Positions 6,001 to 9,000 of a stretch of 9,467 nucleotides of DNA are shown here, one piece after another. The DNA is from a virus (Duplodnaviria > Heunggongvirae > Uroviricota > Caudoviricetes): positions 1-9,467 of the IMG/VR virus record IMGVR_UViG_2548876943_000010. The stretch is one strand, 5' to 3'. The position numbers were made by a program. How positions within the stretch are numbered: position 1 is the first letter of the stretch; the number at the start of each line of letters is the position of its first letter.

Positions 6001-9000
6001 TGCACTGCTGAAACAGTATGGTATACGCCTGACGGCTAATCAGGCATATCACCAGATGGTGAAACTGGGGATCGTCGAGCAGCGCGAACGATACAGTCGT
6101 ACCGCGATTAACAACATCAAAAAATTCTGGTCGCTGACAGCGAAAGGCTGTCATGTTCGGCAAGAACATCACCAGTCCCGCAAATCCGCGCGAGACGCAG
6201 CCGCATTTCTTCGAATCCCGATTCCCTGAGCTGTTAAAGCTGCTCGATACCGTTCATTGAGGTGACCGTGAGAGCACTACTGACCCCTGAAATTGCCCCG
6301 CGTATGGGGATCGTATTGTTCAGGCCAGGTTCAGAGCTGATGCCCCTGTTTATGCAGGGGCGTGTCCTGCTGGAGCCTGAGCCGGAGCGTTATTCATCTT
6401 TCGCCAGTGGTGCCGTTCCGGCGGCATCACAACCGCTGGCGGATGATCCTGCCGTTCGGGCCGTGTTCCGCAATGAGGCAGTGATCCGTCGTGCTGGTGG
6501 CGTGGAATGTCTTGAAAGCTGGTTACTTCGTGAAAAAGGCTGCCAGTGGCCTCATTCCGACTGGCACAGCGAGAACATGACCACAATGCGACACGCTCCG
6601 GGTGCAATCCGTCTGTGCTGGCACTGCGATAACCAGCTGCGCGATCAGTTCACGGAACGGCTGGAATCAATGGCAACGGATAACTGTGCCCGCTGGGTGT
6701 TGTCTGTTGTGCGTCGGGATCTCGGTTTTGATGACAGTCACGTTGTGACAATGCCGGAACTGTGCTGGTGGCTGATTCGTAATGATCTGGCGGATGCCTT
6801 ACCGGAAAGTGCGGCCCGTAAGGCACTGAGATTACCGAAGCCTGTTGTGCCGTCTGTTACCCGGGAAAGTGACCTTGTGCCTTCGGTTCCTGCCACCAGC
6901 ATCATCCAGGATAAGGCGAAAAAGGTGCTGGCGCTGAAAGTGGATCCGGAGTCGCCGGAGTCTTTTATGTTACGCCCAAAACGTCGCCGCTGGGTTAATG
7001 AAAAGTACACGCGCTGGGTTAAGACACAGCCGTGTGCATGTTGTGGAAAGCCCGCTGATGATCCCCACCACCTGATAGGTCACGGTCAGGGTGGAATGGG
7101 AACAAAAGCGCATGACCTTTTTGTGTTGCCTTTGTGCAGAAAGCATCACGACGAGCTGCATGCGGATACCGTGGCATTTGAAGAGAAGTATGGCTCCCAG
7201 CTGGAGCTGATATTTCGTTTTATCGATCGTGCGCTGGCAATAGGCGTACTGGCGTAAGTGGAGAACGAGCATGAACCTTGAAGCCTTACCAAAATATTAC
7301 TCCCCAAAATCTCCAAAACTGAGTGATGACGCACCGGCGACAGGCTCTGGTGGTTTAACAATTACGGATGTAATTGCTGCGCAGGGGATGGTGCAGTCGA
7401 AAGCACCACTGGGTTTTGCCTTATTCCTGGCAAAAGTTGGTGTTCAGGATCCTCAGTTTGCGATTGAAGGTCTGCTCAATTACGCGATGGCACTGGATAA
7501 CCCGACATTGAATAAATTGAGTGAAGAAACCCGGTTACAGATCATCCCTTACCTTGTGAATTTTGCCTTTGCTGATTATTCCAGGTCTGCGGCAAGTAAG
7601 GCTCGCTGTGAGCATTGTGCTGGTACTGGATTTCATAATGTATTGCGCGAGGTGGTGAAACACTCCAGAAGCGGGGAATCTGTTATCAAGGAAGAGTGGG
7701 TGAAGGAACTATGTCAGCATTGTCATGGTAAGGGAGAAGTCAGCACAGCGTGCAGAGGGTGTAAGGGTAAAGGTATTGTCCTGGATGAAAAAAGAACCCG
7801 GCTTCATGGTACGCCTGTTTATAAGATTTGTGGGCGTTGCAATGGTAACCGGTTTAGCCGTTTACCAACCACACTGGCGCGGCATCATGTCCAGAAGCTG
7901 GTACCTGCCCTGACGGATTATCAGTGGTACAAAGGATATGCAGATATCATTGATAAACTGGTTACAAAGTGCTGGCAGGAAGAAGCATATGCAGAGACAC
8001 AATTGAGAAAAGTGACAAGATAAATGATTTTCGCCGAAGATGGCGACATGATGCTTGCATTTTTCAAAAAATATGGATAAGATTTTCCCAACGATGGGCT
8101 TTGTATGTCTACCGTTGATAAGATTTAAGAACCCGCCGCTGAGCGGGTTTTTTTGTGCCTGATGTCTCATGAAACTATGAAATGGATTGGTACGTTAAAC
8201 ATTTTTTCTTATTATCTTTTAGATTTTGGAGAGATGGGTAACGTCTGTATTCCAGAAACTCGATGAATATTTAATAAATTAGTTCAATGATGCTTCTAGG
8301 TTATGAGTGTAATGAAAAAGGTATTAATAGCAGCGATAGGTTTTTGTTTAGTTGGTTGTGCAGGTATGAAATTACCTGAGTATTCGCAAGTTAAAGCAAG
8401 TCCGTATTATACAGATTGCCGTGCGTTTGCCATGGATGTTTATAAAAATGATGGATACAGCAAAATTGCGAAAACCACTATCCTTAGCATGGATGATGTG
8501 AAGGCTAGATATATTGTTACAGGGTGTGTAGTTGCTATGGGGAAAAACACTGTAGAGGAAATTAAAGCTGATCTCTCTGCTAAAGGGAGTTCTTTTGGGC
8601 TTATCAGTGGTGCTTGTTCTAGTGCTGCATGTCGGGTTGATGTAGAGCAGCAAATGAACGCTTATATACTTGGTAGTTATTATGCTGCAAATAAAAAATT
8701 CCCGGATAAAATGAAAGCAGAGTTTTAAGCAAACCTTGTTTTCGATTATATGCCGAAGATAAATGTTAGTAACGGCATAATAAGTAAATATATAGCTGTG
8801 ATAGCAACCCGCCACTGAGCGGGTTTTTTATTTCGGAATTAATTACGGACCGTTATTATTCTGCTCCCGGCCCTTTAGCTCAGTGGTGAGAGCGAGCGAC
8901 GCATAATCGCCAGGTCGCTGGTTCGAATCCAGTACAACGCGCCACACTTATTTTCCCTGGCTCGCTTTTGCGGGCCTTTTTTTTAAATGTCTCACAATTC

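Follow-up and report, generated by a model that had tools for sequence, protein, structure and literature searches.

In lambdoid and Shiga toxin (Stx) phages, the late promoter pR' is constitutive, and its transcription is terminated at tR' during lysogeny (PMC7547250). Short RNAs that run from pR' to tR', such as lambda 6S and StxS, have been described (PMC7547250). Morons are defined by a promoter and a terminator of their own and by a deviant G+C (GC) content (PMC3594210). Here, we analysed 9,467 nucleotides (nt) of a Caudoviricetes virus (IMG/VR record IMGVR_UViG_2548876943_000010, positions 1 to 9,467; hereafter, the window). This 9.5-kb stretch represents the immunity-to-Q segment of an Escherichia coli lambdoid prophage. 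Between the gene for the late antiterminator Q and the late region, the window carries a lipoprotein gene (8303-8728, plus strand) embedded in AT-rich DNA and bracketed by two copies of a 24-nt terminator, T1 (8130-8153) and T2 (8806-8829). The sequence of this cassette and its distribution among related phages suggest that it is very probably a classical moron, gained and lost by recombination between terminators.

A gene bracketed by two terminator copies

T1 (AACCCGCCGCTGAGCGGGTTTTTT) and T2 (AACCCGCCACTGAGCGGGTTTTTT), both located on the plus strand, form a direct repeat in which 23 of 24 positions are identical. This agrees with a preliminary description of the locus, which reported two terminators sharing 24 nt with one mismatch. 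The sole difference between the copies is a base in the loop of the hairpin. No further copy of the repeat, allowing up to 3 mismatches, is present in the window, and none was matched in 200 shuffled sequences. Both copies consist of a G+C-rich hairpin followed by a U run, with folding energies of -13.9 kcal/mol for T1 (z -3.7) and -11.2 kcal/mol for T2 (z -3.4). A consensus terminator scan listed T2 and missed T1, likely because the T1 stem is able to pair on into the U run. The records of phages Ayreon and SfV carry a terminator annotation for this element, at the same position.

The DNA unique to the insert (8154-8805, plus strand) measures 652 bp in the window and 653 bp in the copies found in IMG/VR, and the lipoprotein gene is the only conserved open reading frame (ORF) between the terminator copies. 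The GC content of the insert (8156-8805) is 35.7%, and falls to 27.7% at the third codon positions of the gene, versus 50.7% in the rest of the window and 46.5% in Q. The deviation from the flanks bears out the preliminary view of an AT-rich cassette, with an LVGC lipoprotein ORF, placed between Q and the late region.

Comparisons with related phages revealed occupied and empty versions of the site. In SfV, the same Q, pR' and terminator are followed directly by orf47 and a methylase gene. Ayreon features the terminator, the lipoprotein gene, a second terminator and then the same downstream sequence as SfV. An exact-pattern scan of IMG/VR for the 24-mer identified at least 120 loci; the matches listed with this pR' comprise 11 occupied and 24 empty sites. 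The flanks of occupied and empty sites that were paired are 99.6-100% identical over 500 bp on each side, and the members of a pair differ by exactly 677 bp, which corresponds to the 653 bp of unique DNA plus one 24-nt repeat. This 677-bp difference was seen in two Q-allele backgrounds. One empty site (L027) carries the loop base of T1 together with the right-hand flank, and therefore fits a crossover within the repeat. Insertion or exchange at the terminator repeat had been proposed from the window alone, and SfV, the empty IMG/VR loci and the 677-bp pairs all support it.

In a survey of 5,426 complete E. coli genomes, sites were defined by the 3' end of Q plus T1. Such sites occur at about 1438 places in 1210 genomes, and the cassette is present at 219 of these places, in 215 genomes (about 15%). 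The segment between the terminator copies therefore varies among related prophages; the gene is neither conserved at this position in all relatives nor free of GC deviation.

T2 marks the right recombination junction of the block. BLAST matches to other phages stop or begin exactly at 8829. Downstream of T2, three different late regions are found in different phages. The first, featuring orf47 and the methylase gene, is present in Ayreon, mEp460, and the Stx2c and Stx2k phages, in which transfer RNA (tRNA) genes and stx2 come next. The second is that of the window, and contains a hybrid tRNA, STnc100 and a nanS-p-like gene. The third consists of tRNA Ile-Thr-Gly and essD (strain IHE3034). The cassette is thus located upstream of stx2 in Stx2c and Stx2k phages, in the same interval, and the earlier assignment of this slot to late cargo such as stx holds. 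The junction between T2 and the tRNA leader of the window is the same as the terminator-tRNA junction found behind another pR' variant (U10-D8); the gene upstream of the latter junction (L094) is a Q-lambda-type Q by sequence resemblance only. From these comparisons, we infer that homologous (unequal) recombination between copies of the terminator accounts for the gain, loss and re-assortment of the block.

Direct repeats flanking an insert would also fit a target-site duplication, generated by a transposition-like or site-specific insertion, and strong terminators share constraints, as would be expected of convergent look-alikes. Both origins are extremely improbable. Neither a transposase, an integrase nor terminal inverted repeats were found within 8154-8805, and target duplications are usually much shorter than 24 bp. 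Moreover, the 24-mer is found exactly in dozens of unrelated contexts, which recombine freely and feature mosaic breakpoints on it, and the empty L027 site joins the T1 loop base to the right-hand flank. Homologous recombination between the terminator copies is the preferred explanation, and the locus provides an unusually clean natural example of the addition and removal of cargo.

The exact 24-mer AACCCGCCRCTGAGCGGGTTTTTT (IMG/VR loci L009-L128) is found in at least 43 upstream contexts (120 nt) and at least 39 downstream contexts. These include the tR' of several other pR' variants, as well as virion and baseplate gene junctions (e.g., L081, L092, L093, L094 and L097). Near-exact copies are present in 2447 of the 5426 E. 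coli genomes (45%; median one copy per genome, maximum five) and are always intergenic; the terminator therefore belongs to the accessory genome. By these counts, it is a widespread "portable" sequence located at module boundaries in enterobacterial phages. The exact junctions on the terminator, its ubiquity at module boundaries and the place of the cassette upstream of stx2 are the most noteworthy features of the locus.

Two copies of the terminator, 1428 bp apart, were also observed in a Mu-like baseplate region (L090, reverse strand, 2007-3459), where they bracket a hub gene and a gene for a different, 118-aa lipoprotein (lipobox LTSC). This slot is variable, since other DNA or lipoprotein variants are found in related phages, and therefore represents a second terminator-associated lipoprotein cargo site. 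In L029 and L031, the 24-nt terminator is found about 260 nt downstream of a dusA-like gene (sequence resemblance only) in a G+C-rich contig; the terminator may therefore extend beyond enterobacterial phages.

The late switch and proposed expression of the cassette

All parts of a lambda-type late switch were found upstream of the insert, namely, a Q-lambda-family Q, a sigma70-type promoter with a pause element and a terminator hairpin, which are predicted to function as their lambda counterparts do. Q (7271-8023, plus strand, 250 aa) matches Pfam PF03589 Antiterm (E 1.5e-51) and the Q-lambda chains 7UBM (E 2.7e-37) and 4MO1 (E 5.8e-25) in PDB, and is labelled antitermination protein in RefSeq. 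Compared with Q-lambda (207 aa), the protein features an inserted Cys-rich CxxCxGxG segment at residues ~146-193, which resembles the DnaJ zinc-finger domain (Pfam DnaJ_CXXCXGXG, 30.8 bits, just below the 32.7 cutoff). The putative pR' (8055-8099, plus strand), read from the sequence, is composed of a -35 element TTGCAT (8055-8060), a 17-nt spacer and a -10 element TAAGAT (8078-8083). A -10-like pause element, AACGATGGGC, AACGAT(GGGC), is located at 8090-8099. We take AACGATGGG to be the sigma70-dependent, -10-like pause element of lambda pR'. The AACGATGGG motif also precedes the terminator in other Q/pR' variants (U10, U7, U3 and U29).

T1 is found at empty sites too and, by its position in this switch, is the tR' of the phage itself. 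The preliminary description had the cassette bracketed by both terminators; both copies are real, but the left one is not owned by the cassette. T1 would end a short constitutive pR' transcript (~8090-8153), and lies about 40 nt past pR' and about 30 nt past the pause element; the short pR' RNA would therefore be roughly 65 nt long. Because pR' is constitutive and is stopped at tR' in lysogens, the cassette lies inside the late transcription unit, directly past its gate. The predicted pR'-to-tR' RNA (8090-8153, ~65 nt) forms two hairpins when folded (-21.6 kcal/mol, z -3.3) and would be the counterpart of lambda 6S RNA and StxS. In Rfam, no family matched 8090-8153 at the gathering score, and only sub-threshold, terminator-driven matches to Trp and Leu leaders were obtained.

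A candidate promoter of the cassette, TTGGTA-17-TATTAT, is located at 8187-8215 (plus strand), with a predicted start near 8222. A plausible course of expression is as follows. In a lysogen, the constitutive pR' transcript would stop at T1, and the lipoprotein would be made from its own weak promoter at ~8187-8215. T2, the predicted end of cassette transcripts, would stop transcription before the late and lysis genes, or before stx2 in the Stx2c and Stx2k phages. Once the prophage is induced, RNA polymerase modified by Q would pass both T1 and T2, and the gene would join the late transcript. After export, the product would receive its lipid at Cys19 and, with Ala at position +2, be sorted to the outer membrane, where its domain would face the periplasm. 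An active promoter would give T2 an obvious purpose, since transcription started past tR' in a lysogen would, without T2, continue into the late and lysis genes or into stx2.

Several points weigh against this model. The candidate promoter matches only 9 of 12 consensus positions; the promoter scan, taken as a whole, yielded 5 sites versus 3.9 +/- 2.1 in shuffled sequences, which is not an enrichment; and the structural model of the protein, described below, is only of moderate confidence (mean predicted local distance difference test score, pLDDT, 71.7). Given the weak match and the lack of enrichment, the gene could be expressed solely by Q read-through. The cassette, which lies wholly inside the pR' late unit, would then be late-only cargo without a promoter of its own, expressed as stx2 is by Q read-through of T1, and T2 would be a by-product of recombination. 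We regard this possibility as unlikely, if far from negligible. At the Salmonella locus, the -35 sequence TTGGTA and the -10 sequence are kept at the same position (TTGGTA-18-TATCAT) despite diverged intergenic DNA, which is ~60% identical to that of the window by eye; 15 of 19 other copies feature TTGGTG-17-TATTAT. In addition, every homologue, in every context, is followed by its own terminator, as in an autonomous unit, and the chromosomal copies found in Serratia must be expressed without Q.

The moron interpretation is retained. Of four sequence-level hallmarks of a moron, the cassette displays three, namely, extra DNA, deviant GC content and a terminator of its own; for the fourth, a promoter, there is the 9/12 candidate. 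In Stx2c and Stx2k phages, the second tR' copy and the putative internal promoter located before stx2 could influence both basal and induced expression of the toxin.

The lipoprotein and its homologues

The gene encodes a 141-aa precursor (RefSeq WP_000115362.1), and an alternative start is found at 8312. The signal peptide MSVMKKVLIAAIGFCLVGC features the lipobox L-V-G-C, which fits the pattern [LVI][ASTVI][GAS]C and includes the lipid-anchor residue Cys19 (codon 8357-8359). The lipobox reads V/A/T-G-C in all eight aligned homologues, and LSGC in the distant P0015. As the preliminary description had noted, several Cys residues occur beyond the lipid anchor; these are C39, C75, C105 and C110, which, like the lipobox Cys, do not vary among 8 homologues with identities as low as 55%. 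Residue +2 is Ala, replaced by Ser in one homologue; by the +2 rule, the absence of Asp at this position predicts sorting to the outer membrane. An AlphaFold2 model built from an 8-sequence alignment displays a six-helix domain after a disordered lipid tether (predicted template modelling score, 0.72). The predicted mature domain, of ~122 aa, is all-helical and contains the 4 invariant Cys residues. We infer that it resides in the periplasm, is sorted to the outer membrane and contains two disulfides.

The protein has no family that can be named, as had been stated earlier. The only match is to PHROG 4748 (E 9e-91), in which function is unassigned. Searches of Pfam-A, NCBIfam and PADLOC gave no match for the lipoprotein, single-sequence and profile searches of PDB gave chance-level matches only, and fold searches of PDB and BFVD gave no significant match. 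When 1.84 billion cluster representatives were searched exhaustively with a HMMER profile, only 8 family members were retrieved. We found no paper naming WP_000115362, PHROG 4748 or the gene in Ayreon or mEp460. Other candidates considered, namely, helical immunity proteins of type VI secretion systems (Tai4/Rap), the LprI/DUF1311 lysozyme inhibitors and RcsF, a 4-Cys lipoprotein, are not among the fold matches.

The ratio of nonsynonymous to synonymous substitution rates (dN/dS) ranges from 0.085 to 0.22 relative to the Salmonella and Buttiauxella homologues, with dS saturated, and the ORF is intact in 18 of 19 full-length copies examined, that of the window included. By these measures, the gene is a conserved coding sequence under purifying selection. 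AT-rich DNA does give rise to long spurious ORFs, and a 147-aa ORF (8372-8815) is present on the minus strand, so that an antisense ORF or a non-coding RNA might be the functional product instead. This carries next to no probability: the plus frame is kept down to 55% amino acid identity with saturated synonymous change and low dN/dS (rounded, 0.09-0.22), the PHROG match extends over the full length, and no Rfam match was found in 8154-8805 at the gathering score, where only sub-threshold, terminator-driven matches occur near T2.

The 3' untranslated region of the gene is 77 nt long and contains a 7-bp inverted repeat, TATGCCG...CGGCATA (8749-8779), with a 17-nt loop and without a U tract. Only the E. 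coli version of the cassette has this repeat; in the Salmonella homologues, a different terminator is found directly after the stop codon.

Homologues, which share 55-98% identity, are confined to Enterobacterales. Carriers include prophages of enterohaemorrhagic and extraintestinal pathogenic E. coli (O157:H7, O111:H8 and K1 strain IHE3034) and Klebsiella phage-plasmids, and in each context the gene is followed by its own terminator. In a Salmonella prophage, the homologue is located after a DUF1133-type Q with nearly the same T1, directly upstream of holins; in Rac-like Salmonella prophages, it is adjacent to vapBC. In SSU5-like phage-plasmids (~110 kb) of Klebsiella and Buttiauxella, the gene is part of a two-gene operon with a 99-aa lipoprotein, PHROG 7666. 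The second lipoprotein starts after 10 nt and has a LSGC or LSAC lipobox (L005, 6001-6745; L133, 315-1050; Klebsiella H161-H170). Its similarity to the first is marginal and lies mostly in the signal peptide (hhalign probability 71%). The window contains no remnant of it, nor do the Salmonella and Serratia loci; of the operon, lambdoid phages carry only the first gene. Single chromosomal genes were found in Serratia (L137-L139, gene at 3001-3417; 56-62% identity) in non-phage neighbourhoods, which feature either an emrAB-like efflux pair upstream and a trxC-like gene further on, or pip- and ferritin-like genes nearby (assigned by ORF sequences only). A scan of species-representative genomes yielded only these three loci, all from Serratia.

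The position of the gene in the Q-to-lysis interval, and that of the Salmonella prophage copy directly upstream of holins, might suggest a component of the phage life cycle, for example a spanin-like protein, an accessory to lysis or a regulator of the endolysin. The o-spanin Rz1 is a precedent for a lipoprotein encoded in a lysis cassette. A role of this kind is nevertheless very unlikely. The gene is missing at ~85% of the sites with the same Q/tR' module, as well as in SfV, and the host prophage has a complete set of holin, lysozyme and lysis proteins elsewhere. Homologues are found next to vapBC, at a distance from the lysis genes of phage-plasmids, and on Serratia chromosomes, and no similarity to spanins or other lysis families was detected.

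A host-level envelope role, in protection or exclusion, is most likely, and is favoured over a role in lysis or assembly because homologues live outside phages and because the gene is combined with several late and tail modules. That the protein acts specifically in exclusion or protection, the two taken together, is a tentative proposal and somewhat doubtful as it stands. The lipoprotein is a conserved, selected and otherwise uncharacterised predicted envelope protein; if it alters resistance to phages, serum or lysozyme, or acts on envelope signalling, it would represent a new lysogenic-conversion factor.

A broader scheme can be drawn that joins the terminator to its cargo. The 24-nt hairpin would be a dedicated recombination "linker" that moves single-gene cargo, notably small envelope lipoproteins, between unrelated phage types, such as lambdoid late regions and Mu-like baseplate slots. 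The PHROG 4748 lipoprotein, with its PHROG 7666 partner in phage-plasmids, would be a new envelope protection or exclusion factor and, together with the doubled tR', would perhaps also damp stx2 expression in Stx2c and Stx2k phages. Taken whole, this scheme is quite unlikely.

Prophage setting and comparison with known systems

In addition to the Q module, the window contains a LexA-like repressor gene (670-1362, minus strand), cro-like, cII-like and replication genes, and genes for an adenine methylase, RusA, KilA-N and DUF968 proteins. A prophage of the O157:H7 strain NE122 is 99.9% identical to the window and continues past it with a nanS-p-like DUF6645 gene, holin, lysozyme, terminase and portal genes. 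The "full-length" primers of sRNA-17, a small RNA of E. coli K1 RS218 that is regulated by ArcA and was reported in an "mEp460-like prophage" (PMC7719688), match the window exactly at 30-223. We considered sRNA-17 as a possible RNA of the cassette and rejected it, as it maps to 30-223, left of the repressor gene and unrelated to the cassette. The northern probe used for sRNA-17 matches the plus strand at 112-161 (one mismatch), and a minus-strand RNA would therefore be implied.

Outside the cassette, a Stx-phage-like late leader starts with a hybrid ileZ/argO tRNA remnant (8870-8945, plus strand). Rfam matched a tRNA in 8875-8934 only (37.3 bits), ARAGORN found no tRNA at 8870-8945, and the hybrid is labelled tRNA-Met by the Prokaryotic Genome Annotation Pipeline in the identical prophage. 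Alignment to ileZ-argN-argO revealed that the 5' part of ileZ is joined within the T-arm to the 3' end of argO, with argN deleted. The acceptor-stem halves are unpaired, and a U-to-G change is found beside the anticodon. The hybrid is probably a pseudogene derived from recombination between tRNA T-arms. Between this remnant and the nanS-p-like gene, which starts at 9435, a strong match to Rfam STnc100, a family of gammaproteobacterial prophage small RNAs, was found at 9021-9211 (138 bits, E 6e-32). Terminators on both strands flank the match (9181-9200, plus strand; 9240-9219, minus strand).

Among described systems, the morons reportedly defined for HK97 and HK022 by Juhala, Hendrix et al. 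in 2000, and reviewed in PMC3594210, are closest to the cassette. As in those phages, extra DNA with deviant GC content is found between genes that are adjacent in relatives, and consists of a single gene with a terminator and a candidate promoter, carried by a lambdoid prophage and likely expressed in lysogens. In contrast to those morons, the downstream terminator is a second copy of the tR' of the phage itself, and the junctions of insertion and excision are therefore visible.

Lambda bor (iss), a moron encoding an outer-membrane lipoprotein that confers serum resistance, resembles the present gene, which is likewise small, encodes a lipoprotein, belongs to the accessory cargo of a lambdoid late region and is a candidate for lysogenic conversion. 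The two differ in that the gene analysed here is located after tR' rather than after Rz, and its product has a different size, an all-helical predicted fold and two putative disulfides. Lambda_Bor, one of the 24,736 Pfam models searched, gave no match. The Cor proteins of phi80, N15 and HK022 and the Llp protein of T5, which block the FhuA receptor and thereby mediate superinfection exclusion, are also small phage outer-membrane lipoproteins, some of which are disulfide-bonded, that act in the envelope. There is no detectable homology with either, and searches by sequence and by profile revealed no similarity to Bor/Iss, Cor, Llp, o-spanin (Rz1) or known defence proteins. The genes for Cor and Llp adjoin those for receptor-binding tail proteins; by contrast, this gene accompanies the Q/tR' module and occurs with several late and tail regions.

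The cargo of the Q-to-lysis interval in Stx phages occupies the same genomic slot and shares the constitutive pR', termination at tR' and read-through by Q. Here, however, a second tR' copy and probably an own promoter are added, and the predicted RNA between pR' and T1 is only ~65 nt long.

Finally, boundary "linker" sequences are said to have been invoked by Susskind and Botstein, and by Clark et al. in 2001 for HK620, within the modular theory of lambdoid evolution. The 24-nt repeat likewise is a short conserved sequence found at module junctions, where it joins different modules. As the junctions lie exactly on a terminator that recurs at many module boundaries, the linker idea is directly testable at this locus. 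The conserved sequence differs from those linkers in being a predicted functional intrinsic terminator, shared exactly by lambdoid, Mu-like baseplate and other contexts.

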